The notes under the pieces are model-generated. The model worked only from the letters and a program-made list of their open reading frames with translations, was not told the origin of the DNA and did not search any database. Source: Chloroflexota bacterium (lineage in GTDB: Bacteria; Chloroflexota; Dormibacteria; Aeolococcales; Aeolococcaceae). From it: a stretch of 43,161 bases of DNA. This document shows, piece by piece, positions 12,965 through 29,885 of this stretch (within the stretch, counting starts at the first letter, position 1; the number at the start of each line of letters is the position of its first letter). The stretch covers positions 1 through 43,161 of the forward strand of contig JAQBPH010000285.1 in assembly GCA_028287625.1 (NCBI GenBank). Reading direction: 5' to 3'. The translations under genes were made by a program, and so were the position numbers.

Positions 12965-13034
12965 GGTGCTGGCCCCGCGCACGGGCTGTGAAGATGTCCG
13001 AATCACGCTCCGTAGAAGGAGAGATCGCGTCGGA

Positions 13035-14366: not shown

Positions 14367-15441
14367 GCCGGAGCGAGGAGATCGACCCGCTCGACGGCGC
14401 TGTCACGGTCATTGATCGAGGCAGCGTGAAGCTGATCGTCACCGAGCCGGCCGTGCCCGGCTTGCTCGTGGTGAAGGACACGCCGGTGGCGGCCGTCTCG
14501 ACAAAGCTCGAGCCACCGCCACCCCCGCCGCCGTCGCCGGTGCCGAGGATGCCGTCACCGCCGCCGCCCCCGCCGACGAAACCGCCGCCACCGCCACCTC
14601 CGCCGCCGGCGTAGAGATTGCAACAGCCACCGGCACCGCCGGTACCGCCACCGCCGGGGACGCCGTCGCCTCCCAGGCCACATCCGCCGAGGCCGGCAGA
14701 AGCGCTCTGACCCCCCATGACGCCACCCGGGAGACCGGCTCCCAGGGAGCCGAAGGGACATCCGCCCCTCCCACCGTCACCGGTTCCGCGCGCGACCCCT
14801 GCGCTGCCACCTCCGCCTCCGACGTCGCCGCCGCCCCAGCCGCCGCCCCCACCGCCCCCGCCGGCCACCACGAGGGTGGTGGCGGCGGTGAAGGGGCATG
14901 GTGCACAGGCTCGCAGGTCGGACTCCCCACCACCGCCACCGCCGCCGGCACCGCCACCACCGCTGCTGGTGGGACCAAGGCCACCACCGGCGGCACCGTT
15001 GCCACCACGGCCGCCACCACCAGCGCCTCCCGCGCCGCCGATGTACCCGTTGACGCTGCGGCCGGGAGATCCCACATTCACGATGAGGGTGGTCCCCGGG
15101 GTGACCGCGATATCGGCGGTGATCAGGGCGCCGGTGCCTCCAGGACCACTGCTGCCGCCAGGGCCACCGCCGTCGCCGCCCAGACCACCGCTGCCACCGT
15201 CCGGGAGCTGGCCCCCATCACCGCCCGAGGCACCGATTACCACCACGTGCAGGGTGGGAACCCCAGCCGGGACGGTGAAGGTGTCATCCCCCGGCCTGGT
15301 GTACGTGCACGTCGGCGGCGAGCCTCCGAGGGTTCCGCCGCTGCCACACCCGACGCTGGCGCGCGCCTGCCCCAGGGCAGTGACGGGCGGTCCGACCACG
15401 GCGGCCAGCACCACCGCGAACGCGACCGTCGATGGGTGCAT
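14263..15441 (-). CDS. secreted glycine-rich protein (resembles the bacterial/ALK-type 'glycine-rich domain' family)
   Basis: 392 aa from the ATG at 15441. It has a signal peptide (MHPSTVAFAVVLAAVVGPPVTALGQARA), then TFTVPAGVPTLHVVVIGASGG, ITADIAVTPGTTLIVNVG and TLVVAGGGGGGGG blocks separated by poly-Gly. The 3' end overlaps the convergent YVTN gene by 104 nt, so the true stop/3' end is uncertain. Confidence 0.7.
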   Translation of the reverse strand: MHPSTVAFAVVLAAVVGPPVTALGQARASVGCGSGGTLGGSPPTCTYTRPGDDTFTVPAGVPTLHVVVIGASGGDGGQLPDGGSGGLGGDGGGPGGSSGPGGTGALITADIAVTPGTTLIVNVGSPGRSVNGYIGGAGGAGGGGRGGNGAAGGGLGPTSSGGGGAGGGGGGGESDLRACAPCPFTAATTLVVAGGGGGGGGWGGGDVGGGGGSAGVARGTGDGGRGGCPFGSLGAGLPGGVMGGQSASAGLGGCGLGGDGVPGGGGTGGAGGCCNLYAGGGGGGGGGFVGGGGGGDGILGTGDGGGGGGGSSFVETAATGVSFTTSKPGTAGSVTISFTLPRSMTVTAPSSGSISSLRLRRSGSVLGRVRTRRRRCRRGRRPQGCHARRSTF

Positions 15442-15601
15442 CCATCCCGTGATGCACTTCCGGCAGCTCCTGTCCACTCCCGTCGCCCCCTGTCGATCCA
15501 GCCCCTCCGAGTGTCGACAGGAGAGCCACAGAGCGCCCCCTGTGGCGCCCCACCGAGGTTCGCCACCCGAAGCATATCGAGGCGACGCACTGCGGCGACT
15601 G

Positions 15602-15772
15602 GTCCCAGTCGGCCAAAGAGGGGCCGACATCCGCGACTCCGGGGACAGGGCTCCAGGCGGGAGCGTCATCCCATGATGGCATCCATCCCCGAGGCGGACA
15701 ACATGGGGTGGCAAAGTTTGTCCAGAAGGACATGACCTCACAATTTGCGTTCCCCTAATCTCGCGATCACCC
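15602..15772. repeat. copy 1 of a ~170-nt conserved intergenic element (core 15696-15737)
   Basis: It aligns with 38565-38736 in the same orientation. The core is 36/42 identical, including the exact 16-mer TGTCCAGAAGGACATG. It contains the inverted repeat TGTCC-AGAA-GGACA plus an upstream GGACAAC. Confidence 0.7.
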
Positions 15773-16033
15773 AGGGAGAACCGCAGGTCCCAGGGAGAGC
15801 ACAGCGAGACGACCTTCGCTCACGTTGCGTGCGTGAGACGAAGCCGCATCGGGGGTCACGGAGGTTCTGTGTATTCGGAGGCAGGCTCAGTTGTGACGAC
15901 AGTCGTGGCAGCCCAGGTGGGTATGGAGGTGGCTACTGAGAAATAGCGACTCCGAACGTCGAGCCAGAAGCCACCTGCGCGCAAACATCAGACGTTGCGC
16001 TTTAGGCCGAACTGACAAGGAGGCGGGATAACA

Positions 16034-17722
16034 ATGGAGCGTGCGCACAGACGCACCCTCTCGGTACACGGGCGCTGGGCCGTCGCAGGGGCGGCCCTGG
16101 CCATTGCGGCCGCTGCGTGCGGCGGCGGTAATGGTTCCGCGTCCCTGACGGGTCAGGGTACGGGACGGGGTCAGTACAGCAGCGGCGGTGCTCAGGGGGC
16201 TCCCGGTGCCGCAGAGGCGGCCCCGGCTGCTCCGGGTGCCCCGGCCCCGGCTGCTCCGGGAGCAGCGCAGGCGGCCCCGGTTGCCCCAGGTGGCGCGGCC
16301 GGATACGCTGCACCAGGCAGCTCTGTCCAGGGTGCTGCTCCGGCGGCACAGCCCGGTGCGGCGAAGAATCAGCTGCCCAACCCGGTCGGTGGCCAGGGGG
16401 CCGCAGGCGCGGCTGGCAGCAAGGCCAGTGCACCCGGCGCCTCTGACGTCGGCGTCACGGCAGCCACGATCACGCTGGGTCGAATCGACTTCGAGTCCGC
16501 GACCCGGAGCCTGGGCTCGATCATCGCTGAGCCGAGCACCGTCGTCGAGCAGGGCATCGTCGACTGGATGAACCAGCAGGGTGGGATCAACGGCCGCAAG
16601 CTCGTCCTGCTCAAGTGCGACGACGGCGGTGACATGACCCGCGCGGTGGCCTGCTACCAGAAGATGAAGAGCCAGGTCTTCATGTTCATGCCCTCCGAGA
16701 CGTGGCTCACCGAGATCGCCCACCAGTATGTCGACCGGGACAAGGTCCCGATGATGACCTGGGGGTGGTTCCTCAGCGAGTTCACCGATCCCTACATGTT
16801 CCCCTGCCACGCCAACGGGGAGCACGAGGCCGTTGCCGAGACCAACTGGGTCCTCGCCCACAAGCAGATCAAGACGGCGGGCATCGTGTACCTGAACGTG
16901 ACCGAGGACATCAACGCGGCGAACGCGTCGGCGAAGATCCTCGAGGATCACGGCGTCAAGGTCGTCCAGAAGATCCCCCAGGAGTGGGACTCCCCGGACG
17001 AGTCGCAGCATGTGCTGGCGCTGCGCGTCGCCAATCCTGATATCGTCTTCGGCTTCAGCTGGCCGGGACCGAATGCCAAGCTCCTGCACGACGCGGATGA
17101 GCAGCACTGGGCTCCCGCCAATGGCTACTATCTCAATCATCTGACCCTGGATCCGGGCTACGGTCCCGTGTACGGGAGCTACATCAAGGGCAAGGTCACC
17201 GCGATCACGTCCTTCGTATACCCGCCCGATGCGGCTCCCGGCAACAGCTTCTGGGAGATGATCACCAAGAACTTCGGCGGATACAACCTCGAGGGCCTCC
17301 GCTGGAAGTATGCGGCCGGGCACCACGTCACCCAGGGCTCGGTGGCCTGCATGCGGATCGCATTCAACGTCCTCAAGGAGCTGGGGCCGAACCCCACCCG
17401 TGCGGCGTTCATCGACTACCTCGAGTCCCACCAGTTCGACTCCGGCATGGGTATCGTCATGCGCTGGCCGAAGGGCAACCACAACATGGACCCCTACGCC
17501 TACAACCGTGAGTACCTGTACCAGTGGGTCGACAGCACCGTCGCGGGCCCCGGCGGCAACGGCGGCTACGACGAGCAGCGGATCCTTCCCGACCCGGTCT
17601 ACCGGCCGGAGATCGAGCCGTGCAAGTCCCCGAAGGTCGAGGAGTGCCGGCCCATGCAGGAGCCGGGGTCCATCCTCCACGGAGCAGGGCTCTACTACCA
17701 CGATCAGCCGTACTACAACTGA
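16034..17722 (+). CDS. Liv/amide-type ABC transporter substrate-binding lipoprotein (type-I periplasmic binding fold) with a long Ala/Pro/Gly linker
   Basis: AAGGAGG lies about 8 nt upstream of the ATG. It has a signal peptide and lipobox (LAIAAAACGGG) and a ~120-aa low-complexity A/P/G linker. The binding domain follows (ITLGRIDFESATRSLG.., GGINGRKLVLLKCDDGGD, GIVYLNVTEDINAANASAKILEDHGVKVV). Liv-type permease genes follow. Confidence 0.9.
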   Translation: MERAHRRTLSVHGRWAVAGAALAIAAAACGGGNGSASLTGQGTGRGQYSSGGAQGAPGAAEAAPAAPGAPAPAAPGAAQAAPVAPGGAAGYAAPGSSVQGAAPAAQPGAAKNQLPNPVGGQGAAGAAGSKASAPGASDVGVTAATITLGRIDFESATRSLGSIIAEPSTVVEQGIVDWMNQQGGINGRKLVLLKCDDGGDMTRAVACYQKMKSQVFMFMPSETWLTEIAHQYVDRDKVPMMTWGWFLSEFTDPYMFPCHANGEHEAVAETNWVLAHKQIKTAGIVYLNVTEDINAANASAKILEDHGVKVVQKIPQEWDSPDESQHVLALRVANPDIVFGFSWPGPNAKLLHDADEQHWAPANGYYLNHLTLDPGYGPVYGSYIKGKVTAITSFVYPPDAAPGNSFWEMITKNFGGYNLEGLRWKYAAGHHVTQGSVACMRIAFNVLKELGPNPTRAAFIDYLESHQFDSGMGIVMRWPKGNHNMDPYAYNREYLYQWVDSTVAGPGGNGGYDEQRILPDPVYRPEIEPCKSPKVEECRPMQEPGSILHGAGLYYHDQPYYN

Positions 17723-17733
17723 GTAGGAACACC

Positions 17734-17806
17734 GGGACTCTCTGAATCCTCACATCCCAGAGTCCCTCGCCTCAAACATCCGGGGGAGCATCCGCTTCCC
17801 CGGATG
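17734..17806 (+). promoter_or_regulatory. two intercistronic stem-loops between the SBP and permease genes
   Basis: GGGACTCT-N17-AGAGTCCC (17734-17766) and CATCCGGGG-N12-CCCCGGATG (17777-17806) lie in the 141-nt gap. Such hairpins commonly uncouple SBP and permease expression. Confidence 0.35.
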
Positions 17807-17863
17807 CCAGGCGACAACGGCCTGGGCATCATCAACAAGTGAAGGGTTGAAAGGAACTACTAC

Positions 17864-18748
17864 GTGGCAATCCTGATCTCCGCCTCGTTCATCGGGCTGA
17901 TGTTGGGCACCGTCTATGCCCTCATGGCGTTCGGAATCGTTGCGTGCTATCGGATCAGCCGTGTCGTGAACCTGGGAATAGCTGGGATTGCGGCGTGGTG
18001 CGCCGGTGCGTATTGGTGGATGGCCGACAAGTGGGGGGCGCCCCTCGTGGTCGCGCTCATCGTGGCGATCCTCATCGGGACGGCGATGGGCGGGCTGTTG
18101 GGCGTGATGGTGGTGCGCATGAAGAGGTGGCCGGTGGGCCTGCTCATGATCATCACGCTGTCCGTCAGCCTTCTGCTCTTCTGGCAGTCCGACACCTGGC
18201 TGCCGTCCTTCAACCCCACGGTCCCCTCACCCTTCGGAGAGGGCGGGTTCAGCCTGTTCTATGCGCAGGTCAACTGGTCCGACGTGGGGACCTTCCTGAC
18301 CTGCCTGCTGGTGGTGGGCCTGTTGACGGTGCTCATGCGCATGACCCGCTTCGGACTGTTCACGCGGGCCATCTATGACGATCCGCCGGGAGCGGCGACC
18401 CTGGGGATCCCCTTCAATGTGGCGGTCGTCGGCATGTGGGCCCTGGGTGGGGCGCTGGCGGCGCTGGGAGGGGTGCTGGTGACGCATCGCAGCCTGCTGC
18501 AGTCGGACCTGCTCCTCTTCATCGCCGTGTGGGGGCTGGCGGCTGCAACGCTCGGTGGGCTGGAATCGTTCGTCCTGGCCTTCGTCGGAGGGCTCTCGCT
18601 CGGCATCGCCGAGGGGGTCGTGGGCGGAGACTTCGGCTCGTCGCTGCCGCCGGGCGTCGAGAACCTTGCCTCGGTGGCGGTGATGGCGGCTGCGGTTCTG
18701 TACGCGGGCATCAAGCGTCGCGGTCAGATTACGGAGGTGACGGCGTGA
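17864..18748 (+). CDS. branched-chain-amino-acid-type ABC permease, LivH-like
   Basis: 294 aa with a GTG start. It reads GTVYALMAFGIVACYRISRVVNLGIAG, MRMTRFGLFTRAIYDDPPGAATLGI and GGLESFVLAFVGGLSLGIAEG. Confidence 0.9.
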   Translation: MAILISASFIGLMLGTVYALMAFGIVACYRISRVVNLGIAGIAAWCAGAYWWMADKWGAPLVVALIVAILIGTAMGGLLGVMVVRMKRWPVGLLMIITLSVSLLLFWQSDTWLPSFNPTVPSPFGEGGFSLFYAQVNWSDVGTFLTCLLVVGLLTVLMRMTRFGLFTRAIYDDPPGAATLGIPFNVAVVGMWALGGALAALGGVLVTHRSLLQSDLLLFIAVWGLAAATLGGLESFVLAFVGGLSLGIAEGVVGGDFGSSLPPGVENLASVAVMAAAVLYAGIKRRGQITEVTA

Positions 18749-19890
18749 AGACCTCGACGGTCGAACCGGGCACCGCGCCCCATACCGACACTGTGAGTGC
18801 GCCGCCAGCGAGTTCGGCGGTGGCGAGCCGTGCTGCCGGTCTCAGGAACTTCACCGATCGCCTGGACCGCCGGCTGGAGCGCCTGCGCCGGGGCCATTCG
18901 TGGACAGAGCTGCGACTGCCCATTCTCTGCGTGGTCCTCGCCGTCGGGGGCTTCCTCCTCCTTCCCGACGATTTCCTGTACGCGGGTGCGACAGCGCTGT
19001 CGTCCGGCGTCATTGGGATCGGCCTCTTCTTTCCCATGGCCACGCTGCGTGAGCTGTCGCTCAACGCCGCGGGACTGGCGGGGGTGTCGGCGTACACCTA
19101 CGCGCACCTCGCATCGAGCGGCACGGCGTCGAAGGGCGTCGGTGGGATCATCAACGGCCTGATCGTGGCCGTGCTCGCCGTGATGAGTATCTCGGTGATC
19201 GGCGGTCTGGCGGCGCTGGTGGTGACCGGGCTGTACTTTCTCGTCGCGTCGCTGGTCATCCAGGCGGCGATCGAGAAGGTGGCCTTCTCCATCTCCGGGT
19301 TCACCGGTGGTGCGGCCGGCTGGTTCGTGCCCCAACCCGATCTCGGCACCGGCTGGTTCGACACCAGCCGGGCGGTGTACCTCATCGTGGCGGCGGTGAC
19401 GCTGGCGGCGACGTGGATCACCTACCGTGTGTTGCGGTCGCGGTTTGGCATGCACGCGACCGTGGTCGGCCAGGTGCCCGAGGGTGCCACCGCCGTGGGG
19501 CTGCGGAACTGGCTGCTGAAGCTCTCTGTGTTCGCCTACGCGGGTGCGCTGATCGCTCTGGGCGGCATTCTGCTCGCCTTCTCGAATGGCACCCCGCCGG
19601 CGACGGCCCGGTTCGGTCTGGTGTGGTCGGTCATCTACCTGGCAATCCCGATCGCCAGCGGCCTGAAGGATCTGTCCGGCGTGTTGCTGATGGCGGTGAT
19701 CTTCACCGTCACCCCCATCGTGATCGAGCCGTGGAATGTCGCGCCGAACCTGGTGTCGGGAATGATCCTCCTGGTGGCGACGATCCTCGGCTTCTACCGC
19801 GGGCGGTGGTGGACGATCATCAGGGACACCTACTGGAGGATTCGTGGGGTGACCCCGGCTGCGGCGACGGCCGCGGTGGAGGGCGCATGA
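18745..19890 (+). CDS. branched-chain-amino-acid-type ABC permease, LivM-like
   Basis: The GTG overlaps the LivH stop (GTGA). 381 aa. It reads LNAAGLAGVSAYTYA, FSISGFTGGAAGW, RSRFGMHATVVGQVPEGATAVGL and LSVFAYAGALIALGGILLAF. Confidence 0.9.
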   Translation: MKTSTVEPGTAPHTDTVSAPPASSAVASRAAGLRNFTDRLDRRLERLRRGHSWTELRLPILCVVLAVGGFLLLPDDFLYAGATALSSGVIGIGLFFPMATLRELSLNAAGLAGVSAYTYAHLASSGTASKGVGGIINGLIVAVLAVMSISVIGGLAALVVTGLYFLVASLVIQAAIEKVAFSISGFTGGAAGWFVPQPDLGTGWFDTSRAVYLIVAAVTLAATWITYRVLRSRFGMHATVVGQVPEGATAVGLRNWLLKLSVFAYAGALIALGGILLAFSNGTPPATARFGLVWSVIYLAIPIASGLKDLSGVLLMAVIFTVTPIVIEPWNVAPNLVSGMILLVATILGFYRGRWWTIIRDTYWRIRGVTPAAATAAVEGA

Positions 19891-19891
19891 G

Positions 19892-21271
19892 ATGGCGAAG
19901 GCATGGCCATCTCACTGTGAGGTCTGCGGGGGGTGGCATCAGATCGGCCCCGTCTGCCCCAATGCTCCGGCCCCTTCCATGAGCAAGGACGTTGGTCTCG
20001 AGGCCGGTCTCGACCAGGAGGTGGTCAAGGTGGTTGCCCAGGAGATCGCGATCGTCCGTCAGGAGGTGGAGCGCAGCAGGAGCGAGCTGCTCGAGCGCAT
20101 CGACAGGCTGGAGGGGCACGGCGGCCCAGTCGAGCGGGGGGGTGATGGCCTCGGCATCACCGAGACGATGGGAGGGTGGCTGGCGGTGTTCGCCGTGGCG
20201 GCGCTGGCCTTCTCGGTGATCATGGCGCTGGCGCAGTCCATGGATGTGTGGGCGGGCGCCCTCATCGTTGCCGGGTGCTTCGCCGCTCTGTGCGCGGCGG
20301 CGCTCGTCGCGGAGCGTCTGCTGGGAATCGACGTGTCGGAGGCGGTCCGTCGGACGCTTCGGACCGGAGACGGTCCGTTGGCGCCCGACTCATCCGATGG
20401 TCAGAAGTGGTCGCGCCGGGTGACTGAGCTGCGTCCGACCGGGGCCGCCGCCGGCAGCAACGGCGGCGACAGCCACGGACATGGCATGGGGACGACGACC
20501 CTGATCGGCCGAGCCGAGACACGACGGCTCGCGCGAGAGCGGATCGGCCAGCCTCAGGGTCTTCAGGGCGAGGGGATCGTGGTCAACTTCGGCGGCGTGC
20601 GCGCCGTCGACGACGTGAGCATCCGACTTGCTCCGGGGGAGCGCTTGGGAATCGTGGGCGCGAACGGCGCCGGGAAGACCACGCTGTTCAATGCCCTGAC
20701 CGGCTTCGTGCCCCTCGATCAGGGACGGGTGTCCCTGGGGAGCCAGGACATCACCGGGTGGCCGAGCTTCGTGCGGGCGCGAGCGGGGATCCGTCGCACC
20801 TTCCAGAAGCCGCGGCTGTCGGACACCCTGACGATGGAGCAGAACATCGGCGTGGGGCATCGCGACATCCCCCAGGCGCAGTGGAACGAGCGCGTCGGGT
20901 TTCTGCTCGAGCGTTTCCATCTCGCCGACAAGCGGGGTGTGCCGGTGGGCGCGCTCCCGTTCGGCCAGCGGCGCGAGGTGGAGGTGATGCGTGCACTGAC
21001 GCGCACCCCCCACGTGCTGATGCTGGACGAGCCGGCCAGCGGACTCGAGGGGCCGGAGGTCGAGGGGCTCCTCGAGACCCTCATGGAGCTCCAGGCGGAC
21101 GAGGGCTGGGGGCTGATCGTCATCGAGCACGACCTGCAGTTCATCACCACCCTGGTGCAGAACCTCATGGTGATGGAGGACGGGATCCTGATCATGGAGG
21201 GGCCGACGCACGACGTCCTCACGGATCGCCGGGTCCGCCGCATCTACCTCGGGGAGGCAGTGGGAGCGTGA
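19892..21271 (+). CDS. LivG-like ABC ATPase with an atypical ~210-aa N-terminal extension (Cys/His knuckle, coiled coil, two TM helices)
   Basis: The ATG lies 1 nt after the LivM stop. The C-terminal 250 aa carry Walker A GANGAGKTT, the Q-loop, the signature region FGQRREVEVMRAL, Walker B VLMLDEPASGL, the H-loop IVIEHD and a Liv-type tail RRIYLGE. The N-terminus reads HCEVCGGWHQIGPVC, VRQEVERSRSELLERIDRLE, WLAVFAVAALAFSVIMALA and AGALIVAGCFAALCAAALVA. No stop separates the two parts. Confidence 0.9.
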   Translation: MAKAWPSHCEVCGGWHQIGPVCPNAPAPSMSKDVGLEAGLDQEVVKVVAQEIAIVRQEVERSRSELLERIDRLEGHGGPVERGGDGLGITETMGGWLAVFAVAALAFSVIMALAQSMDVWAGALIVAGCFAALCAAALVAERLLGIDVSEAVRRTLRTGDGPLAPDSSDGQKWSRRVTELRPTGAAAGSNGGDSHGHGMGTTTLIGRAETRRLARERIGQPQGLQGEGIVVNFGGVRAVDDVSIRLAPGERLGIVGANGAGKTTLFNALTGFVPLDQGRVSLGSQDITGWPSFVRARAGIRRTFQKPRLSDTLTMEQNIGVGHRDIPQAQWNERVGFLLERFHLADKRGVPVGALPFGQRREVEVMRALTRTPHVLMLDEPASGLEGPEVEGLLETLMELQADEGWGLIVIEHDLQFITTLVQNLMVMEDGILIMEGPTHDVLTDRRVRRIYLGEAVGA

Positions 21272-22128
21272 TGAGCCACTTCACCATGGCGGGCTCGCAG
21301 CCAGAGACCACCGCGGCCACCCAGGCCGTCCACGCAGGCCTGGTCGTGCAGGACATCCGAGTCTCGTACGGTGCGGTGCCGGCAGTCCGCGGGGTGACCC
21401 TCGAGTGCCGGCCCGGGCAGATCATCGGAGTGGTCGGACCCAACGGGGCGGGGAAGACCAGCCTGCTGACGGGGATCGCCGGCATCGCGCCGATGCTGGG
21501 CGGCTCGGTGTCGGGCTCCGTCTCCCTCGACGGCCGCGACCTGACCCGCTGGGCCGGGCACCGGCGGGGTCAGGCGGGCATCGTCTACATGGCCGAACGG
21601 CGGCGGGTATTCCCCTCGCTGTCGGTGCGAGAGAACCTCGAGGTGGGCGGGTGGGGGCTCGACAAGACGGAGGTGAAAACCCGCGTCGAGAACATCTATC
21701 GCATCTTCCCCCGGCTGGCCGAGCGTGCGGGCGTGCCGTCGTACCGGCTGTCGGGCGGCGAGCAGCGCATGCTGTCCATCGGACGGATGTTGTTGAGCGG
21801 GGCACAGTGCCTCCTTCTCGACGAGCTCTCGCTGGGCCTCGCCCCGCGCATCGTCTCGGAGCTGATCGGCACCATCCGCTCGGTGGCGGCCGAGGGGCGG
21901 ACAGTGATCATCGTCGAGCAGTACCTCGGGGTGCTTCTCCAGATGGCCGACCTCATCCATGTCCTGCAGCGTGGGAGGTTCGAGTTCTCCGGAGCGGGAC
22001 AGGAGGCCCAGGACTGGCTCGAGCACCATGGGTTCTCGGTCCATGCCGCGACGGCCGCCGCGCGTGCACAGGCGACGAACATGTCGAGCTGGAATGCTCA
22101 TGTGCAGGAAACGGGAGGATTGAAGTGA
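21271..22128 (+). CDS. LivF-like ABC ATPase
   Basis: The ATG overlaps the LivG stop (TGATG). Motifs: GPNGAGKTS, LSGGEQRMLSIGR, LLLDELSLGLAP and IIVEQY. It has an unusual C-terminal tail, DWLEHHGF.... Confidence 0.9.
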   Translation: MSHFTMAGSQPETTAATQAVHAGLVVQDIRVSYGAVPAVRGVTLECRPGQIIGVVGPNGAGKTSLLTGIAGIAPMLGGSVSGSVSLDGRDLTRWAGHRRGQAGIVYMAERRRVFPSLSVRENLEVGGWGLDKTEVKTRVENIYRIFPRLAERAGVPSYRLSGGEQRMLSIGRMLLSGAQCLLLDELSLGLAPRIVSELIGTIRSVAAEGRTVIIVEQYLGVLLQMADLIHVLQRGRFEFSGAGQEAQDWLEHHGFSVHAATAAARAQATNMSSWNAHVQETGGLK

Positions 22129-23495
22129 AGAGCTTGGGGCGCGTCACCAGCAGGATATTGCTGGTGACGGTGGGCGTCGGGCTGATCGTGGGAGGCGGGC
22201 CGCTCTGGCACGCCGTCGCCGACGACAGCGTCGCGGGCGGCGACTGCATCACCGACTACCATGCCCAGGGGTGGACCCTGGCGGTCGGAGAGGGGCTGGA
22301 GATTCCCGCGGAGAACGTGGCGGGACAGCCGTACGTGCTCGGCGGTCTGATCGACCAGCCGGTGTCCCACGCACGGGCGTCGAGCGGCTACCCCGGGTAC
22401 ATCGGGGAGGCGGTGTACTCGCTGGCCTCGGACAAGGCGCCGCCGTGGCCGGAGGAGGCGGAGGCCTTCTATCCGAAGCCGAGCAGTGGCTTTGACGCCG
22501 ATGCCCACGACTACGGGCCGTTGATGTACAGCAAGGCGATCACCAAGCCCACCTCGCTCCTGGCGGAGGCGAGCGTGGGGAGCGTCGGTGCGCTCCCCGG
22601 CGTCGGGAATGTCGGCCCTGCACTGGCGCACATCGACCAGACCTACGACGGGCAGAGCATCCATGGGCTCCAGCAGGCGGTGGCCTACGACGTGGCCGTG
22701 GGTCCGCTGCACATCGGCCAGATGACGTCGGTGCTCAAGTGGACCAACGATGGGACCGAGCACGGCACGAACGAGACCTGGACCGTCAAGTTTGACAATG
22801 TCGAGGCGAACGGCCAGGTCGTCTCGTCCGCGTCCGGTGACGGCTTCTCGTTCCAGGGCGGGCAGCCCCAGCCGGGGCCCCAGGCGCGGGAGCAGACGGT
22901 GGCGGCGATCAAGCAGCTGGACGATGCACTGATGAAGGCGGGGGTGGGAGCCATCGACATCCATTTCGGCCCCGCCCGCCACGACGTCTCGGCGGGTCAC
23001 ATCGACCTCAACGGAAGTGCGGTGACCATCCGTCTCGCTGATGAGGCCAAGAAGGGCACCATCGGTCAGGCGGCCTCCCTGCAGTTCGGGCGCACCCAGC
23101 TCGAGGTGCTCGCCGGTCGGGGCTCATGCGACAACGCCAAGGAGGCGAACAACGACTACAAGCCAGGCGATCTGCCCACCGGGCCCAACATCCTCCTCAC
23201 CCCGGAGCCGGAATCTGCGCATTGGATGCCGGGTCTGCCGGCGGTGGGCGCGAGGGGTGCGCCCGCAGTGACCACGCATGCGCCTGCGGTCACGCCCACG
23301 CGGGTACAGGGCGCTGCGCCCACGACGTCCACGGGCGTGGCGGCACTCCCGGTGGCGCCACTGGCGCCTGAATCGCCGGTTGTGGACAGGGTCCGCCAGA
23401 TCATCCTCCCGGCTCTGCCTCCCCCGGGTGCCGACGCTCCGGGAGCACCGGTGCAGCAGCCCGACCTGGAGGGCGGTGGCGGTCTGATGCCATGA
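22125..23495 (+). CDS. hypothetical membrane-anchored extracytoplasmic protein (456 aa) with a Pro/Ala-rich tail
   Basis: The GTG overlaps the LivF stop (GTGA). The N-terminal anchor is ILLVTVGVGLIVGG. A ~330-aa globular region shows no motif I recognise. The C-terminus is P/A/T-rich. Confidence 0.7.
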   Translation: MKSLGRVTSRILLVTVGVGLIVGGGPLWHAVADDSVAGGDCITDYHAQGWTLAVGEGLEIPAENVAGQPYVLGGLIDQPVSHARASSGYPGYIGEAVYSLASDKAPPWPEEAEAFYPKPSSGFDADAHDYGPLMYSKAITKPTSLLAEASVGSVGALPGVGNVGPALAHIDQTYDGQSIHGLQQAVAYDVAVGPLHIGQMTSVLKWTNDGTEHGTNETWTVKFDNVEANGQVVSSASGDGFSFQGGQPQPGPQAREQTVAAIKQLDDALMKAGVGAIDIHFGPARHDVSAGHIDLNGSAVTIRLADEAKKGTIGQAASLQFGRTQLEVLAGRGSCDNAKEANNDYKPGDLPTGPNILLTPEPESAHWMPGLPAVGARGAPAVTTHAPAVTPTRVQGAAPTTSTGVAALPVAPLAPESPVVDRVRQIILPALPPPGADAPGAPVQQPDLEGGGGLMP

Positions 23496-23511
23496 TCTGG
23501 AGGAGGCGAGC

Positions 23512-25086
23512 ATGCGCAGCGCGCGCAGGAGCAGGAGCATGAGCAGCACACGGAAGTGGTTGCGCATCGCGCTGGTGGGCGGCCTTGGTGCCGTTGGACT
23601 GGCGCTGGCACTCCAGCTCGCCGCCCCCCACCGGGTGCAGGCGCACGCCCGACTGACGGGCGTGCAGCCTGCCCCCAACTCGACCGTGCCAGGACCCCTG
23701 AAGCAGGTGCTGGTCCAGTACAACGAGCCCGTCGACAAGGACCTGTTCCGCGCCGAGGTGGACGCGAAGGAGGGGTCGGCGTTGGCGGGAAAGCCCGTCT
23801 TCGTCGACCCCAGGACGGTCTCGCTCCCGCTGCGCAGCGGCGTGTCGGGGGCACTGGTGGTCACCTGGCTGGCGGTGGGCCTCGATGCGCATCCGGTCCA
23901 GGGGCAGTTCCTGCTCGGTGTCAGTGCCCCGGGTGGGGCGGCGGCACTCCAGAAGGACCTCACATCGGCGGCGTCGCACCTCGGCGATTTCGAGAGCGGT
24001 GCCGGCAGCGGGGGTCTGCTCGCCGCCATCGAGGCGGGGAGGGCGGTGGAGATCGGCCTGCTCTACCTGACCCTTGGCATCGTGGCGCTCGGAATCCTGA
24101 CACTGGGGCCGCGCCGCCGCGCCAGGGGCGCCCCGTCCGGTGCGATGAGGATGGCCAGCGTGGGTGCCATGAGCATCGTGGTCCCCACGGTGCATCGAGG
24201 GTACCGAGCCCTGCTGGCCGCGAGCGTGGGCTCGGCGCTGCTGATGCCCCTCCTCTTCGCCCTGTATGCAAGCCGGCTCACGCAGGTGATCTCCGGAATC
24301 GGCGTCGGGCGCGTCATGTTCTCGTCGATCGGGGTGCAGTGGACGGTCAAGCTGGTTCTCTGGGCAGCCCTGGCTGCGGTGGTGACCGTGGGGATCCGAC
24401 ACACAGCGCAGGGGCGGCAGCTGGACCGCCGGCTCATCCTGGCCCCGGTGGTGCTCGCGCTGGCGCTGGCCGGGGCCTTCGTCAGCGGGACCCACGTCGG
24501 CACCGGGAGCGCCGACCCGAGCCTGCTGTACATCCCCGTGATGGCCGGCCACATCCTGCTGACCGCATTCTGGGCGGGCGGGCTGTTCGCCCTGCTGGTG
24601 CTGGTCTTCCCGATGGGTGACGCCACGTACGTCTGGGCGGTGATCGGTCGCTTCTCCCGGGTCATGACCGTGACCGCGGGAATCATGGTGGCGAGCGGGG
24701 TGGTTGTCCTGGTGAGGCTGCTGGCGAACTTCAACGCGCTCTGGTGTACCGGCTACGGGGTGACGGCGGGCTTCAAGGTGCTGATCGTGACCCTGGCCCT
24801 GAGCGTTGGGCTCGTGAACAACCGGCTCGTGGCTGCTCACCGGAACTACGAGGCACTCCCCGCCGTGACCCGCCAGCGGCTGCGGCGAGGCGGACCGTCG
24901 CTGGTGCTGATGCGGCGTGTCGTCCTCTGCGAGGCAGCCCTGCTCCTCGGCGTCCTCGTGCTGGCGGCGGTCCTCGGGGAGTCTCAGCTGCCGCCGCTGT
25001 TGAGAAACGTCTACCTCCCCGGCGAGGGGCAGGACGCCGGGTATGTCACAACCTCCGGGCTGTTCGGATCAGGCTGCATCAGGTAG
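23512..25086 (+). CDS. CopC-CopD fusion protein (YcnJ-like copper-handling membrane protein)
   Basis: GGAGGAGG lies 6 nt upstream of the ATG. The signal peptide ends VQA/HARLTGVQPAPNSTV, the CopC N-terminal His start, followed by an Ig-like domain. About eight TM helices follow, with CopD-like HILLTAFWAGGLFALLV and FSRVMTVTAGIMVASGVV. Confidence 0.85.
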   Translation: MRSARRSRSMSSTRKWLRIALVGGLGAVGLALALQLAAPHRVQAHARLTGVQPAPNSTVPGPLKQVLVQYNEPVDKDLFRAEVDAKEGSALAGKPVFVDPRTVSLPLRSGVSGALVVTWLAVGLDAHPVQGQFLLGVSAPGGAAALQKDLTSAASHLGDFESGAGSGGLLAAIEAGRAVEIGLLYLTLGIVALGILTLGPRRRARGAPSGAMRMASVGAMSIVVPTVHRGYRALLAASVGSALLMPLLFALYASRLTQVISGIGVGRVMFSSIGVQWTVKLVLWAALAAVVTVGIRHTAQGRQLDRRLILAPVVLALALAGAFVSGTHVGTGSADPSLLYIPVMAGHILLTAFWAGGLFALLVLVFPMGDATYVWAVIGRFSRVMTVTAGIMVASGVVVLVRLLANFNALWCTGYGVTAGFKVLIVTLALSVGLVNNRLVAAHRNYEALPAVTRQRLRRGGPSLVLMRRVVLCEAALLLGVLVLAAVLGESQLPPLLRNVYLPGEGQDAGYVTTSGLFGSGCIR

Positions 25087-25095
25087 GCGACGAGG

Positions 25096-26265
25096 ATGGC
25101 GAGGAAAGGCTCCGGTTGGAAGCGCCGGGACAGGCAGAGGGAGAGGCAGGGGGCGCCTCCAGCACCGCCCTCGACGGCAGAGGCAGCAGCGCCCGAGCGC
25201 CGCCATCGCCGGAGCGCGGTGGCGGCTGCGATCGCAGGAGCCCTCGCGGTGGTGGGCCTGAGCGTCGTCCTCATCGTGCGCGGGACCACCCGCCAGGACG
25301 CGGTCCCCGGATCGCCAGGCGCTGCGTCGGCGGGCTCGTATCGCGTCGTCTACCGGGTGGACGACAGCGTGGACTCGCAGTCCCAGGCCCAGACGGAGAC
25401 CGATGTCCTCGACGTGGAGCGACCCGATCATCTGCGCCTCGAGCATCGTGAGGGCCCGCCCCCCGGTGGCCGTCTGCTCGGGGGCAGCGTGGTGAACCGG
25501 CAGGACAGCATGAACCTGCCCGACGATTACGCGGTATCGGCGACACCCCGGACCATCCCCAACGAGCTGCAGATCTACTCGGAGCCGGTCCTGCGGGCCG
25601 CGGTCCAGGCGGGAAAGGCGGAGAGCCTGGGGACGGCGACGGTGATCGGCCGCCAGTGTATCCGGTATCTGTATCGGAACTTCGGGAACGAGGCCCTGAG
25701 CAGGGGGAGTGACCAGGACCATGTGGAGACCTGCGTCACCACGGACGGCGTCATGCTTCGCGAGGCGATCACCGCCGGCGGCCGCCAGGTGCGCCTGCTG
25801 CAGGCGGTCGACCTCGATCGGGCACCGCACTTCGCATCGGACACCTTCCTCTCGACGGACAAGAAACCGAACCCTCTCGCCGACACCGAACAGGTCACCG
25901 AGGGGCCACCAGACAGTGAGGCCAAGGTCGTGCGCGGGCCGGCACCCACAGGATTGCAGATGGACTGGAACGTGACCGAGGTCCTTCGAGACAGCGGGCA
26001 GGGCCTGGCGCTGCCCTTCTACATGGAGCGCTTCACCAACGGTGCAGACTTCGTGGTCACTGAGCAGTCTCTCCATGGTGTGGCCGAGGTGCCCTGGACC
26101 ACGACCGGCGGAGACGAGGTGGACCTGGGTGGCGGCAGAAGGGGCAGGCTCCTCTATCACACCGGCTACGTCGAGGTGCAGACCGCCGTCTCCAATTCCG
26201 CGGTCCGTGTCCTCGCCTCTCGTCCGGACCTGGCTCTCTACGAGGCCGAGAGGCTTCACACGTAG
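25096..26265 (+). CDS. hypothetical membrane-anchored protein, paralog 1 (389 aa)
   Basis: It starts 9 nt after the CopCD stop. It has a basic N-terminus, the TM helix AVAAAIAGALAVVGLSVVLIV and an extracytoplasmic domain. It aligns with the next gene (YRVVYRV..TETDVL[DE]VERPD[HR]LRLEHREG.PPGGRLL.GS.VN ... GKAESLG ... LYHTGYVEVQT...VRVLASR..LAL.EAERL.T). Confidence 0.7.
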   Translation: MARKGSGWKRRDRQRERQGAPPAPPSTAEAAAPERRHRRSAVAAAIAGALAVVGLSVVLIVRGTTRQDAVPGSPGAASAGSYRVVYRVDDSVDSQSQAQTETDVLDVERPDHLRLEHREGPPPGGRLLGGSVVNRQDSMNLPDDYAVSATPRTIPNELQIYSEPVLRAAVQAGKAESLGTATVIGRQCIRYLYRNFGNEALSRGSDQDHVETCVTTDGVMLREAITAGGRQVRLLQAVDLDRAPHFASDTFLSTDKKPNPLADTEQVTEGPPDSEAKVVRGPAPTGLQMDWNVTEVLRDSGQGLALPFYMERFTNGADFVVTEQSLHGVAEVPWTTTGGDEVDLGGGRRGRLLYHTGYVEVQTAVSNSAVRVLASRPDLALYEAERLHT

Positions 26266-26313
26266 TCAGAGCATCGCGCGGTCCGCAGAAGGTGTCGCTG
26301 AGGAGTGGACAGA

Positions 26314-27288
26314 GTGCCCCCTGCTGATGGACATCCACGCCGGAACATCGGTGCCATCCTCTGCGTTCTCATCACCGCGAGCGGCCTGTGCCTCGCGGTC
26401 TTCCTTCTCCTCATCCGCCAGGGTGAGGAGGACCCGGAGCGACCGGCGGTGACTCCGGCGCCGGCGTATCGCGTCGTCTACCGCGTGGTCGACAGGGTGA
26501 GCGTTGATCAGCGGGTGCGGGGCACCACCGAGACGGACGTCCTGGAGGTGGAACGACCGGACCGGCTCCGTCTCGAGCACCGTGAGGGTCTGCCTCCGGG
26601 TGGGCGCCTGCTCGAGGGGAGCATCGTGAACGGGCGGTTCACCATGACCTTCCCCGACGAGGTCGCGCACGCCTTCTCCCCTCTGACGGTGCTCTCGGAG
26701 CCGAGGCTGTTCTCGGAGCCGGCGCTCCGCGCAGCGGCCGATGCGGGGAAGGCGGAGAGCCTGGGCCGGAGCTCGATCATGGGGCAGCCGTGCAATCGAT
26801 ACCGCTATCGCCATTTCGGAGGCGAGAGCCTGAGCGAAGGCGACGGACAGGAGCACGTGGACACCTGTGTCACTCCCGACAGCATCATGCTGCGGGAGGC
26901 GATCGAGTTCTCCGGCCGTGAGGTTCGCGTGAGCGAGGCCGTTCAGCTGGACCGTGCGCCCCACTTCGCGCAGGACACGTTCGTCGCCACCGGTGGCCAG
27001 GGGGATTTCCATGGCCAGCTGACGTGGCCGTACTCCATCGAGAGGTTCACCAGAGGGGGAGAGTTCGTCGCGTCGGAGCAGTTCCTCGTCCGCGATGTGG
27101 CCGGACACGTCTGGGACAGCACGGGCTCCTCCCCGATCGATCTGGGGATCGTGAAGGGCAGCATTCTGTATCACACGGGGTACGTCGAGGTACAGACGAG
27201 CGTCGATGGTGCCCAGGTGCGAGTGCTCGCCTCACGACTTCAGCTGGCTCTCAACGAGGCTGAGAGGCTCTACACCCGAGGGCGGTGA
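26314..27288 (+). CDS. hypothetical membrane-anchored protein, paralog 2 (about 324 aa)
   Basis: The GTG at 26314 lies 8 nt after AGGAG; the track start GTG at 26305 is the alternative. The TM helix is IGAILCVLITASGLCLAVFLLLI. By eye it is roughly half identical to paralog 1 but lacks a ~60-aa internal segment. The 3' end overlaps the convergent gene by 38 nt. Confidence 0.7.
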   Translation: MPPADGHPRRNIGAILCVLITASGLCLAVFLLLIRQGEEDPERPAVTPAPAYRVVYRVVDRVSVDQRVRGTTETDVLEVERPDRLRLEHREGLPPGGRLLEGSIVNGRFTMTFPDEVAHAFSPLTVLSEPRLFSEPALRAAADAGKAESLGRSSIMGQPCNRYRYRHFGGESLSEGDGQEHVDTCVTPDSIMLREAIEFSGREVRVSEAVQLDRAPHFAQDTFVATGGQGDFHGQLTWPYSIERFTRGGEFVASEQFLVRDVAGHVWDSTGSSPIDLGIVKGSILYHTGYVEVQTSVDGAQVRVLASRLQLALNEAERLYTRGR

Positions 27289-28690
27289 TGACCGTCTCCG
27301 CAGCCTCCCTGGCGGCGCGTTCGTCCGACTCGAGGAGTGGGTCGATGCCGTAGCGCGCGTGGCGGTACGCCTCCGTGAGCAGGGACAGCGGTACAGCGGA
27401 ACCGTTGTCGTCGACGAGATGGGCGATGCGGTGTTCGAACTCGTCGGCGGTCTCGGCAGGATGGCGCCCCAGCTGCACCGAACGGGCGGCGCTGAGGAGA
27501 TCGCGGTAGGCGAGCCGGACAGGGGAGAGCGAGGCCGCAGCAACAGGGGGGCCGTCACCGCCGCCGGATCGCCGCCAGGCCAGCCGGCGCCGCATCTGCT
27601 CGGCCAGACGCTGCCAGCTGAACACTGAACTGAGCTCCTCGTCGACCGCCGCCGAGGGGTACCGGCGGAACCACCGGGGAGCGAGGAGTGGAGCGGCGAC
27701 GACGATGCCCAGGAGGCCGACGGCGGCCAGCACCCACGCGACCACCGGGGGATCGGTGGACAGGTCCAGCGACTGGGGAGAGGGCTGGGGCGGGGTCGTG
27801 TACCTTGGGGTGGCGGGGTGGAGATGCATCTGGTACCAGCCCGTGGGTTGCTGCGAGAAGACTCTGCGGATGGCGGCGGTGATGCCGTCGATGACGGATC
27901 CGATGGGGTTCGTCGCAGGGGCGACCGCCCACCTGATCGCCGGTGCCGCCAGGGCGCCGATCTGTACCAGCAGCAGCGCGCCGCCGGTGACGGCGAGCAT
28001 CGGGACCGCCAGGACGGCGACCCATGCGAGGCTGGGGCGCGAGGTGGCTCGGAGCAGGACCTTCCGCTCGAGGTCCCGCTCGTGGACGACGGCGAGCACC
28101 GCTGCGGCGGCGGGGCAGAAGAACACGAACAGCAGGCCGGCCGAGCCGGTGCCACGGTGCAGGGCGAGGTCATCGCTGCTGGCCATCGCGGTGAAGAGAA
28201 GAACGAAGGCCCCGAACGACAACCCCATCGACCGCATGACGTGGGCGAACGACGCGTCGACGGTGCCCAGGCCCGTGCCCCGTGCCCAGACGAGGATGGC
28301 GACGACCCACCCGAGAGCGGCCGCGGTCGAGGCGGGAGGATGACCCGCGGTCGTCCAGGGGGCGAAGGCCGCACGGCCGAATGACCCGGTGACCGCGAGC
28401 TCGCTGGTGAGACCCGCGGTGATGGCCGCGCCGACGAGCACAACCGGCGCCACGGTTGCGCTGCGGCGCCACCACGCCCATCCGTATCGGCGGCACACAC
28501 CGGATGCGCCGGCAGCGACCATGGCGGGGACCGCGAAGAGTGCGTAGGGGATGTCGACTCCGAAGCTCGGCGAGGCATTGGCAACGACCGCCATCCACAG
28601 GAAGATCCAGGTCATCTCCGCCGCCGCCCAGAGGACCGGGACGGCGACGCTAGACAGCCAGTTCCAGGCTGGTCCTGCTCTTCCAGTCAT
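27251..28690 (-). CDS. polytopic membrane protein with a C-terminal DUF4129-like domain
   Basis: About 479 aa from the ATG at 28690, overlapping the DUF58 stop by 41 nt; an alternative ATG lies at 28615. It has at least 8 hydrophobic helices. The C-terminal soluble domain carries ETADEFEHRIAHL...LLTEAYRHARYG, the DUF4129 signature. No transglutaminase Cys-His-Asp core is recognisable. Confidence 0.7.
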   Translation of the reverse strand: MTGRAGPAWNWLSSVAVPVLWAAAEMTWIFLWMAVVANASPSFGVDIPYALFAVPAMVAAGASGVCRRYGWAWWRRSATVAPVVLVGAAITAGLTSELAVTGSFGRAAFAPWTTAGHPPASTAAALGWVVAILVWARGTGLGTVDASFAHVMRSMGLSFGAFVLLFTAMASSDDLALHRGTGSAGLLFVFFCPAAAAVLAVVHERDLERKVLLRATSRPSLAWVAVLAVPMLAVTGGALLLVQIGALAAPAIRWAVAPATNPIGSVIDGITAAIRRVFSQQPTGWYQMHLHPATPRYTTPPQPSPQSLDLSTDPPVVAWVLAAVGLLGIVVAAPLLAPRWFRRYPSAAVDEELSSVFSWQRLAEQMRRRLAWRRSGGGDGPPVAAASLSPVRLAYRDLLSAARSVQLGRHPAETADEFEHRIAHLVDDNGSAVPLSLLTEAYRHARYGIDPLLESDERAAREAAETVITALGCRASQPR

Positions 28691-29885
28691 CGCTGAACCT
28701 CGCGAAGAGACGGGCGTCGACGGACTCAGGAGGCGGCGGAACCCCTTTGTCGGAGACCACGGTGACCGCGGTGACCGAGCGGCGGCGCCGCAGATCGTTG
28801 AGAGCGATGAGGGTCGCCTCGGGGAAGTCGGCGGCGACGACGACGACGCTCGTGCCGTGGGGCAGACCACCGGCGTGCAGGGTGATCAGCTCGGCGAGCT
28901 GGAGCGAACCGAGGGGTGAGGCCCGAGCCAGCAGCTCGAGGAGATGAGAGAGTGTGTCGGGTGAGCTCATCGGAGCGCGCGCGATGGCGTACCCGTCGAC
29001 GGTGCCGGTGGAGAACAACCCCGTGGCGATCCCTCTCCCGGTGAGCTCCGCGGCGATGGATGCGGCGACCGCGATGGTGAACTCCAGTCGGGGTCGGTCG
29101 ATGGTCCATCCTCGCAACTCGGTCACGTTGGTGTCGAGGAAGATCGCAGCCCGCAGACGGGCCGTCGGCTCGAACTTGCGAACCAGGAGATCGTTGGTCC
29201 GCGCCGTCGCCCGCCAGTGGAGATGGCGAAGGGGGTCGCCGGTTCGGTACTCGCGCACCCCGGAGAGCCTGCTCGGATCGCCGAGAAGCCTGCCGGCAGC
29301 CCGGTGCTCGCCCAGCAGCATCCGTGATGTGGCCGCGACCGGTGCGAGTGCAAAGATCTTCGGGAACACCAGCAGCTCCTGAGACTCCGATTCCCTTCTG
29401 CTGCGGCGGCGATATCCCAGAGGGTCACCCGACTCCAGCTCCGCGGGGCCGAAGGTGTGCGCCCCTCGCTCGTCACAGACGATGGTCATGCGCCCGGTGA
29501 GCCGCTGGTAGGGGAGCATGGGCACCAGGTGCGGCAGCGTGCGGACCAGGCCCGACCGCCCGGGGGCGAGCGTCCCCCCGCGGAACGTCAGCTCGCGAGG
29601 CACGATGTCCTCGATGTGAAGCCAGGGCAGCGGGAGCAGCTTGTCGTTGATCAGCTCGACCTCGAGCAGCACCTCGTCGCCGAAGAGCGCGCGTCGCTGG
29701 CTCAGTCTGCGGTGGTAGCTGACGCCGACCAGACAGTCCCTCTGCCAGAGGTACAACAGCCCGGTGGCCGCCATGCCGAGCATCCCCGCGAGTGCAAGGA
29801 GGCTCGAGCGCACCGACCACCCGGCAATGGCCAGGACCAGGGAGCAGGCAGCCAGCCACGCGTCCCTCCCCAGGCGGCGCCTCAT
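28650..29885 (-). CDS. DUF58 domain protein (MoxR-associated)
   Basis: 411 aa with two N-terminal TM helices. The hallmark GVREYRTGDPLRHLHWRATARTNDLLVRKFE is present. Its ATG overlaps the MoxR stop (ATGA). Confidence 0.9.
   Translation of the reverse strand: MRRRLGRDAWLAACSLVLAIAGWSVRSSLLALAGMLGMAATGLLYLWQRDCLVGVSYHRRLSQRRALFGDEVLLEVELINDKLLPLPWLHIEDIVPRELTFRGGTLAPGRSGLVRTLPHLVPMLPYQRLTGRMTIVCDERGAHTFGPAELESGDPLGYRRRSRRESESQELLVFPKIFALAPVAATSRMLLGEHRAAGRLLGDPSRLSGVREYRTGDPLRHLHWRATARTNDLLVRKFEPTARLRAAIFLDTNVTELRGWTIDRPRLEFTIAVAASIAAELTGRGIATGLFSTGTVDGYAIARAPMSSPDTLSHLLELLARASPLGSLQLAELITLHAGGLPHGTSVVVVAADFPEATLIALNDLRRRRSVTAVTVVSDKGVPPPPESVDARLFARFSDDWKSRTSLELAV

Follow-up and report, generated by a model that had tools for sequence, protein, structure and literature searches.

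Organisation of the locus

The DNA analysed here is a stretch of 43,161 nucleotides (nt) from a Chloroflexota bacterium (GCA_028287625.1, contig JAQBPH010000285.1, positions 1–43,161 of the forward strand), called the window below; its G+C content is about 69%. Between positions 16034 and 27288 it carries nine open reading frames (ORFs), all co-directional on the + strand, which join a Liv-type ABC importer to a CopC-CopD copper-handling fusion and to exported proteins of two very rare families. A preliminary description of the window had spoken of a ten-gene operon; translation of the coordinates gives nine ORFs, which is also the number that eight junctions imply.

The string opens with the gene of a lipoprotein substrate-binding protein (SBP; 16034–17722, 562 amino acids (aa), Pfam Peripla_BP_6). 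It is followed by two permease genes, LivH-type (17864–18748, 294 aa) and LivM-type (18745–19890, 381 aa), both matched by Pfam BPD_transp_2, and by two ATPase genes matched by Pfam ABC_tran, LivG-type (19892–21271, 459 aa) and LivF-type (21268 or 21271 to 22128, 285/286 aa). Next come an exported protein of 456 aa with no Pfam or NCBIfam match, referred to as the orphan or unk456 (22125–23495), and the CopC-CopD fusion (CopCD; 23512–25086, 524 aa, Pfam CopC and CopD). The last two genes encode paralogous membrane-anchored proteins, which AlphaFold2 (AF2) modelling and Foldseek predict to be RseB/MucB-like, of the LolA superfamily: paralog A (25096–26265, 389 aa) and paralog B (26314–27288, 324 aa), a tandem duplicate with an internal deletion that is 52% identical to paralog A. 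The Pfam matches (Peripla_BP_6, two BPD_transp_2, two ABC_tran, CopC and CopD) agree with the Liv-type importer and the CopC and CopD domains that had been recognised earlier from the sequence alone.

Nearly all the genes are tightly joined. GTGA overlaps link LivH to LivM at 18745 and LivF to the orphan at 22125. LivF starts either at a GTG at 21268 (4-nt overlap) or at an ATG at 21271 (1-nt overlap); in the close relative L005 (the loci retrieved for comparison carry L numbers) the gene call of the Joint Genome Institute (JGI) places the start at the ATG. The intergenic gaps measure 1 nt (19891), 16 nt (ahead of 23512), 9 nt (ahead of 25096) and 48 nt (ahead of 26314). GGAGG-like ribosome-binding sites lie ahead of seven of the nine starts; LivH and paralog A have weak ones. 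The co-directional, coupling-type arrangement given in the preliminary description is correct at every junction listed, as is its remark that the only larger gap is the hairpin-containing one after the SBP gene: this gap, between SBP and LivH, measures 141 nt and folds strongly. Within the nine-gene string a consensus scan gave no promoter-like site, and terminator-like sites are not above shuffled expectation. Since internal promoter or terminator signals are not in excess, and since the overlaps and the gaps of 1–48 nt come with ribosome-binding sites, these data support one operon.

Conservation of the gene order

Contigs encoding relatives of the orphan or of the paralogs were retrieved, and scans were made of one genome per GTDB species and of the JGI metagenome collection, the latter with a 7-member orphan alignment as query. 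The window proteins were then mapped by tblastn onto every retrieved locus. The order SBP-LivH-LivM/LivG-LivF-orphan-CopCD-paralog recurs in at least 15 distinct loci (L001, L005, L006, L008, L010, L012–L014, L016–L021 and L027–L033). The adjacency of LivF, the orphan, CopCD and the paralog, whose conservation across genomes was the key test put forward in the preliminary description, is thus a recurrent one; LivH, LivM and LivG come before it, and in most cases the SBP too. The source labels of these loci are Dormibacterota, “Chloroflexi”, Actinomycetota and Acidimicrobiia metagenome-assembled genomes (MAGs), together with forest and grassland soil metagenomes.

Across loci the identity of the operon proteins ranges from 28 to 70%. 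Relative to the window, L005 being excluded, it is 61–70% for LivF, 50–58% for LivH, 44–53% for the SBP, 39–58% for CopCD, 34–47% for the paralog and 28–40% for the orphan. The junctions are also short in the other loci, from small overlaps to about 50 nt according to independent gene calls, and each of three MAGs (DATKEY, DATARS and VBHE01) holds two copies of the operon. The distance matrices of LivH, LivF, orphan, CopCD and paralog correlate with each other (r = 0.79–0.96, Mantel p <= 0.0005), and this co-divergence of five families fits inheritance as a unit.

Some loci depart from the common order. L008 has its SBP gene downstream of the paralog and not upstream. CopCD has been cleanly lost between the orphan and paralog genes, the rest being kept, in L011 (9586–9767) and in the metagenome contig L026 (7083–7753); the MAG of L011 has a second copy, L014, which is apparently frameshifted, its CopCD being intact in the metagenome contig L031. 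A stray paralog-family gene stands between CoA-transferase and MaoC hydratase genes in L004 (= L015), in a cluster that also encodes Ldi, SnoaL, MEDS, PucR, and alcohol and aldehyde dehydrogenases. On contigs long enough to judge, this is the one occurrence of the paralog family outside the operon context, and the orphan family has none.

Eight genes make up the core of the system, which has been passed on as one block in a few soil lineages, namely Dormibacterota and some Actinomycetota/Acidimicrobiia. Paralog B at the locus level, the Cys/Tyr tail of the SBP and a split, self-anchored LivG are lineage-specific, being found in the window and L005 only.

A divergent importer of the HAAT type

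Two BPD_transp_2 permeases with a LivG-like and a LivF-like ATPase in one operon make up the component set of a HAAT importer, and all related loci have the same set. With LivJHMGF/UrtABCDE (HAAT, TC 3.A.1.4) the system shares the five parts, their gene order and a hairpin after the SBP gene. Unlike Liv and Urt proteins, all five score far below the NCBIfam Liv/Urt equivalog cutoffs: the SBP reaches 17 bits with the Liv SBP model (cutoff 477), LivH 49 bits with UrtB (cutoff 250), LivG 158 bits with UrtD (cutoff 304) and 155 with LivG (cutoff 362), and LivF 164 bits with UrtE (cutoff 286) and 162 with LivF (cutoff 441). By these cutoffs they do not qualify as LivJHMGF/UrtABCDE orthologues.

The SBP is made of a lipobox, an A/P/G linker of about 120 aa, a divergent LIVBP-type domain and a Cys/Tyr-rich tail. 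Its match to Peripla_BP_6 (E = 1.8e-33, 117 bits for a cutoff of 31.7) assigns it to the LIVBP fold. The lipobox, AAAC GGG in the window, is VAAC/AAAC GGG in most orthologues, and the orthologues also conserve the long low-complexity linker, four invariant Cys and the motifs CDDGGD, WGWFxSExxDP[YW]MFPCHANG and QEWDSPDESQHVL. The Cys/Tyr-rich tail is confined to the window and L005. Of the traits for which this SBP had been called atypical, the A/P/G tether is shared by other loci, and the tail is a lineage-specific addition. The protein is remote from any solved LIVBP: a PDB search returned distant relatives (4RU0 at E = 3e-8), all uncharacterised structural-genomics entries, which gave no clue to the ligand. 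His, Cys and Asp are enriched among the invariant residues of the SBP to a degree that is usual for these residue types, and this was discarded as evidence.

LivH and LivM match BPD_transp_2 with E-values of 2.1e-25 and 9.7e-13 respectively. LivM and LivG are fused into a protein of 615–701 aa in all loci but the window and L005. In the window, the ABC_tran domain of LivG (residues 240–382) is preceded by an N-terminal extension of 220 aa with a CxxC...H...C motif, a coiled region and two hydrophobic helices, placed by hydropathy at residues 96–114 and 121–139. Because LivM and LivG are fused in every other locus, membrane tethering of the LivG ATPase is a trait of the subfamily. The anchor that the preliminary description had found atypical in LivG is present, its free-standing form being limited to the window and L005. 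Residues 92–141 of LivG (20165–20314) also give a weak Holin-X match (E = 1.3e-4); a genuine Holin-X (PF07332) gene lies at the start of the window (1267–1938, - strand).

LivF ends in a WLEHHG[YF] tail, which is kept in 13 orthologues and in a second Liv cluster of the window (31.5–35 kb). The sharing of this tail with the paralog at 35 kb had been noticed earlier; it extends to all the orthologues. Compared with Liv/Urt systems the importer is thus set apart by its membrane-tethered LivG (through LivM fusion or its own helices), by the tail of LivF, and by three or four further conserved genes, whose products are extracytoplasmic or membrane proteins. In the literature searched, no HAAT system extended in this way was found.

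The CopC-CopD fusion

The two halves of CopCD match Pfam CopC (3.6e-10) and Pfam CopD (1.2e-9; 38.9 bits for a cutoff of 32.1), the latter in a polytopic membrane region of about eight hydrophobic segments. In the 14 CopCD sequences aligned, a signal peptide ending in AxA, with a cleavage site inferred from sequence, is invariably followed by H-[AP]-R-[LI], and a D-A-H-P motif is invariable about 80 residues after the mature N-terminal His. The CopC domain has no Met-rich Cu(I) site or Met cluster in any orthologue aligned. A mature N-terminal His and a DxH with no Met-rich site place the domain in the C0-1 CopC class, of which the N-terminal His and DxH are the defining ligand set (PMC12154828); their mutation abolishes the function of YcnJ in Bacillus subtilis (PMC12154828; PMC13344008). 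In the CopD half the invariants, again in 14 of 14 sequences, are TH328, M344xxH347, WC412 and a C-terminal GLFGSGC. A His of the CopD domain of YcnJ (H295) is needed for function, and so is a conserved His in YebZ (PMC13344008). H328 and H347 of CopCD, both invariant, are at most candidate counterparts of H295 of YcnJ.

CopCD resembles YcnJ of B. subtilis (ycnKJI) and YobA-YebZ-YebY of Escherichia coli by its C0-1 CopC ligands joined to a His-bearing polytopic CopD (PMC12154828, PMC13344008), and also by the other exported proteins encoded in the same operon. It differs from them by its place inside an ABC importer operon and by the GLFGSGC tail, known here from the operon CopCDs. It also differs by what Pfam did not find in CopCD or its neighbours: a YtkA domain, YcnI/DUF1775, YebY/DUF2511, or a nearby regulator of the YcnK/CsoR type. 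With neither YtkA domain nor YcnI, YebY or copper regulator nearby, this is not a YcnJ-type system; judged by its ligand residues, CopCD is yet a credible Cu(II)-handling protein.

The orphan protein

The orphan is beta-rich. Its single hydrophobic segment, at the N-terminus, precedes an invariant A-x-A (A30, A32); other features are the motifs W-x-x-DGT-x-x-GT and GDGF...PG, two Cys (C41 and C335) conserved in every locus save one apparent frameshift, and a variable Pro-rich tail. The preliminary description had the protein anchored. The invariant AxA after a single hydrophobic segment points instead to secretion, and the orphan is probably released after cleavage of a signal peptide.

The family is very rare: among 5.8 billion protein clusters it has 3–5 relatives, and an HMMER scan of all 1.84 billion representatives found 39. 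Pfam run on 26 members at E <= 1 returned nothing recurrent, and among ten of the 39 HMMER matches that were checked no Pfam domain appeared bar one spurious Fn3-repeat match. Profiles of 7 and 26 members gave E >= 1 or nothing against PDB sequences. An AF2 model built on a 6-sequence alignment was of low confidence (mean predicted local distance difference test (pLDDT) score of 34), and Foldseek on this model gave nothing at E <= 0.001. A common origin of the orphan and paralog families was rejected (hhalign probability 0.1%). No His of the orphan is invariant across all loci: H128 and H196 are kept in the Dormibacterota-type loci and not in the Actinomycetota loci, so that the idea of a cuproenzyme is unsupported.

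Two of the three remote orphan relatives checked (L022 and L023) directly adjoin genes of Liv-type ATPases, and no CopCD match was found on these short contigs. This suggests that the orphan is tied to the transporter and not to CopCD.

Paralogs A and B

The AF2 model of the paralog family, built on 23 sequences, has a mean pLDDT of 70 and a core above 90. It shows two beta-rich domains behind a disordered, membrane-anchored N-terminus. Against the PDB, the best Foldseek matches of the model are RseB/MucB structures (2V42, 3M4W and 6IN9), with E = 1e-10, a probability of 1.0 and both domains aligned; VioE comes later, then many LolA structures (E = 1e-4). The similarity to RseB/MucB and LolA lies in the two-domain beta layout, the modelled N-terminal domain being like an unclosed LolA barrel, and in the extracytoplasmic location with a membrane or lipid anchor. 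In contrast to RseB/MucB and LolA, the paralogs have no sequence-model match, no sigma or anti-sigma genes at hand, low template-modelling scores (TM-scores) and a signature of their own. These low scores limit the claim to a LolA-superfamily fold with an RseB-like two-domain layout, and within this limit the model makes the paralogs two-domain RseB/MucB-like proteins of the LolA superfamily. Their fold, which the preliminary description had left as unknown, is in this way recognised by structure prediction.

None of the 23 family members has a Pfam MucB_RseB or LolA match; three give weak DUF2092 matches. Paralogs A and B have one transmembrane segment each, at residues 42–60 and 15–33 respectively. 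Among the 5.8 billion clusters the family counts 22 relatives, some of which have a lipobox instead of the transmembrane anchor; the named relatives of the two rare families are MAGs of Candidatus Dormibacteraeota. The family signature is EH[RH][ED]GPPPG with two invariant Cys. Three further close protein homologues of paralog B (P0008–P0010) are known besides the loci of the window and L005. No sigma or anti-sigma genes were found in the operon or its flanks, which makes a regulatory role of the RseB type unlikely. LolA-like domains generally bind hydrophobic ligands, and acyl-chain binding by this type of fold is known from RseB, LolA and the mycobacterial LprG/LppX.

Leader and hairpin of the SBP gene

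The region upstream of the SBP gene (15742–16033, + strand) is a long 5' leader or promoter region of about 290 nt with no called gene, closed by an AAGGAGG ribosome-binding site. SBP leaders longer than 250 nt are found in the other loci too (1400–1660 in L014, 1300–1559 in L016, 1300–1562 in L021 and 4215–4480 in L027) and are strongly conserved within each synteny group; the conserved part includes a hairpin with compensatory changes (alignment A5). Rfam, searched for a riboswitch or other known RNA with the leaders of the window and of two other synteny groups, gave no match. The leader could be an unrecognised regulatory RNA, or merely a terminator and promoter region.

The intergenic region after the SBP gene (17723–17863, + strand) contains GC-rich hairpins with no U tract, with a folding energy of -60 kcal/mol (z = -4.1). 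A strong GC-rich hairpin lacking a U tract occupies the same position in the 11 loci tested (11/11, z from -3.2 to -7.4), and its sequence differs between synteny groups. A hairpin after the binding-protein gene is a common device of ABC importer operons for producing the SBP in excess; here also the hairpins most likely raise the output of the SBP over that of the membrane components.

Surroundings of the operon

Upstream of the operon lie a beta-propeller gene (12963–14366, + strand) and an ORF on the - strand (14263–15741) for a Gly-rich protein with no Pfam match, in which a hydrophobic N-terminal segment is followed by Gly-rich repeats over several hundred residues; this ORF was not selected as coding by the codon-usage score. 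Further upstream, in about 3.5 kb (~6400–10000), ORFs that share the codon bias of the neighbouring genes are almost absent, and there is no tRNA or Rfam match. Downstream, a convergent DUF4129/DUF58/MoxR-AAA cluster (27251–31309, - strand) shares 38 nt with the 3' end of paralog B, which leaves no room for a terminator; the corresponding overlap in L005 is 54 nt.

The second Liv-type cluster (31562–35083, + strand) was identified by Pfam as a LivH and a LivM-LivG-LivF triple fusion. Its LivF domain is 69% identical to that of L001 and 56% identical to the LivF of the window's operon. It belongs to the same ATPase subfamily, keeps a WLEHHGY tail and lacks genes for an SBP, orphan, CopCD or paralog. 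A gene for a small Cys-rich cytoplasmic protein with no Pfam match (36146–36595) follows about 1 kb further downstream; homologues of this protein (190 aa) are encoded divergently upstream of the full operon in L001, L010, L011 and L012. The window ends with a pair formed by a MEDS sensor and a PucR-type regulator (40887–43159). A MEDS-PucR pair also adjoins the stray paralog-family gene of L004 (4322–6696), and PucR-type regulators flank the operon in L008, L010, L011 and L012.

The flanks vary with the synteny group. One group has a large AAA-plus-LuxR regulator, PucR, an alcohol dehydrogenase and Ldh; another a Fer2-FAD-NAD reductase, GH18, a response regulator, SCP2 and an aldehyde dehydrogenase; the third a histidine kinase.

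Discussion

All the domain families of the operon are known except that of the orphan. The literature searched describes neither their combination and its conservation nor the two rare families. No paper on an operon of a Liv-type ABC importer with CopCD was found; the coverage of the literature being incomplete, this is weak evidence of novelty. To our knowledge, this is the first CopCD consistently co-inherited with a binding-protein-dependent ABC importer.

The reading that we tentatively prefer, and which we regard as close to an even call, is that the nine genes form one operon encoding one co-inherited envelope system, in which a divergent HAAT-type importer is accompanied by copper-handling and hydrophobic-ligand accessory proteins. 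The transporter would import an organic substrate other than the standard Liv/Urt ligands. The LolA-like partner and the catabolic context of the stray paralog of L004 suggest that this substrate is poorly soluble; it could also be a metal-complexing compound. The LolA-like protein and the orphan would act outside the membrane, where they may capture, shield or hand over the substrate. As the copper site is intact, copper uptake or delivery may be coupled to the substrate: CopC would take Cu(II) at the surface and pass it to CopD, copper acquisition being thereby coupled to substrate uptake. Such coupling could have one of two reasons: the substrate may enter as a copper chelate, or a copper enzyme may be required to process it.

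Several points weigh against this reading. Functional coupling is inferred from gene linkage alone, and any set of genes passed on vertically in the same genomes should co-diverge as these families do. Copper handling is not indispensable for the copies of L011 and L026, which are devoid of CopCD; yet the MAG of L011 holds a second copy with CopCD (L014/L031). The orphan has no invariant His/Met/Cys cluster of a copper enzyme or chaperone, and its fold could not be predicted. The TM-scores of the paralog are low (0.25–0.36 with RseB, 0.4–0.5 when normalised to LolA). Finally, the flanks of the three synteny groups offer no consistent metabolic clue.

The best-surviving alternative, a possible one although on the unlikely side, is that two independent functions share one transcript: a divergent Liv-type nutrient importer (SBP to LivF) and a self-contained module for copper acquisition or cuproprotein maturation (orphan, CopCD and RseB-like protein), comparable to ycnJ-ycnI or yobA-yebZ-yebY. 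In that case the genes would be linked because they are regulated together, or because of a chance event that became fixed in an ancestor, and not through a joint mechanism. CopC-CopD proteins do work alone elsewhere, with small partners such as YcnI and YebY (PMC12154828, PMC13344008, PMC8689200), but the orphan and paralog families display neither a YcnI-like N-terminal His nor any other invariant set of copper ligands. The loss of CopCD in L011 and L026, where the ABC and other accessory genes persist, cuts both ways: it separates copper handling from the importer, and at the same time the orphan and paralog genes, which should belong to the copper module, stay with the ABC genes. The remote relatives of the orphan are likewise found beside Liv-type ATPases, on short contigs with no CopCD match. 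The second ABC cluster of the window, of the same subfamily, has no accessory genes, which speaks for this alternative. Against it, order and tight spacing persist where the accessory proteins are 28–40% identical, under different phylum-level labels, and also in duplicate copies of a single genome.

A stronger form of our preferred reading has CopCD, the orphan and the RseB/LolA-like protein as genuine subunits of the transporter, or as partners that it depends on; together they would represent a new class of copper-coupled uptake system. We consider it rather improbable. A Cu(II)-organic chelate, for example a chalkophore-like compound or a humic or amino-acid complex, would be imported in such a scheme; CopC would strip the metal, CopD would take it in and the ABC transporter would import the ligand, the two orphan families acting as new extracytoplasmic factors of capture and hand-over.

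More doubtful still is a role in the handling of lipids or hydrophobic envelope components, with the ABC transporter powering extraction or insertion, the LolA/RseB-like protein and the orphan carrying the component across the wall, and CopCD either a passenger or serving a copper-dependent modification. The layout would then resemble Lol, Mla or the actinobacterial Mce systems. In mce operons the ABC membrane components are followed by anchored extracytoplasmic proteins thought to pass a hydrophobic substrate to the permease, and several genes for anchored extracytoplasmic proteins also stand downstream of the ABC genes here. This analogy is organisational only: the permeases are LivH/M and not YrbE, mce operons have neither a LIVBP-type SBP nor CopCD, and there is no sequence similarity to Mce proteins. 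The predicted LolA-superfamily fold of the paralog would suit lipid handling. LivG also matches LptB models (146 bits, below cutoff), but such scores are typical of any ATPase of the LivG/LivF type. An SCP2 gene lies nearby in one synteny group, whereas no lipid-biosynthesis genes recur in the flanks. A LIVBP-fold lipoprotein SBP with BPD_transp_2 permeases marks solute importers, not the known lipid-trafficking ABC systems.

A chance or genome-specific juxtaposition of unrelated genes is refuted by synteny and deserves almost no credence, since the linkage is too conserved (at least 15 loci) and the families too rare (39 orphan matches among 1.84 billion representatives, 22 paralog relatives among 5.8 billion clusters), the genome-specific parts being only the variable flanks and lineage-specific extras such as the second paralog and the SBP tail.

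Bacterial copper import is poorly understood, and CopC-CopD proteins such as YcnJ and YebZ are only now being characterised. If the linkage described here is functional, metal acquisition would be coupled to the uptake of an organic substrate, a coupling missing from current transporter classifications. Each of the two very rare protein families, the RseB/LolA-like one and the one whose fold is not recognised, is nearly confined to this operon and gains a genomic context from it. Dormibacterota and the related uncultured soil Actinomycetota that host the operon are abundant soil bacteria whose physiology is almost unstudied; an uptake system that is conserved in them, and at times duplicated, may point to a substrate of ecological relevance.

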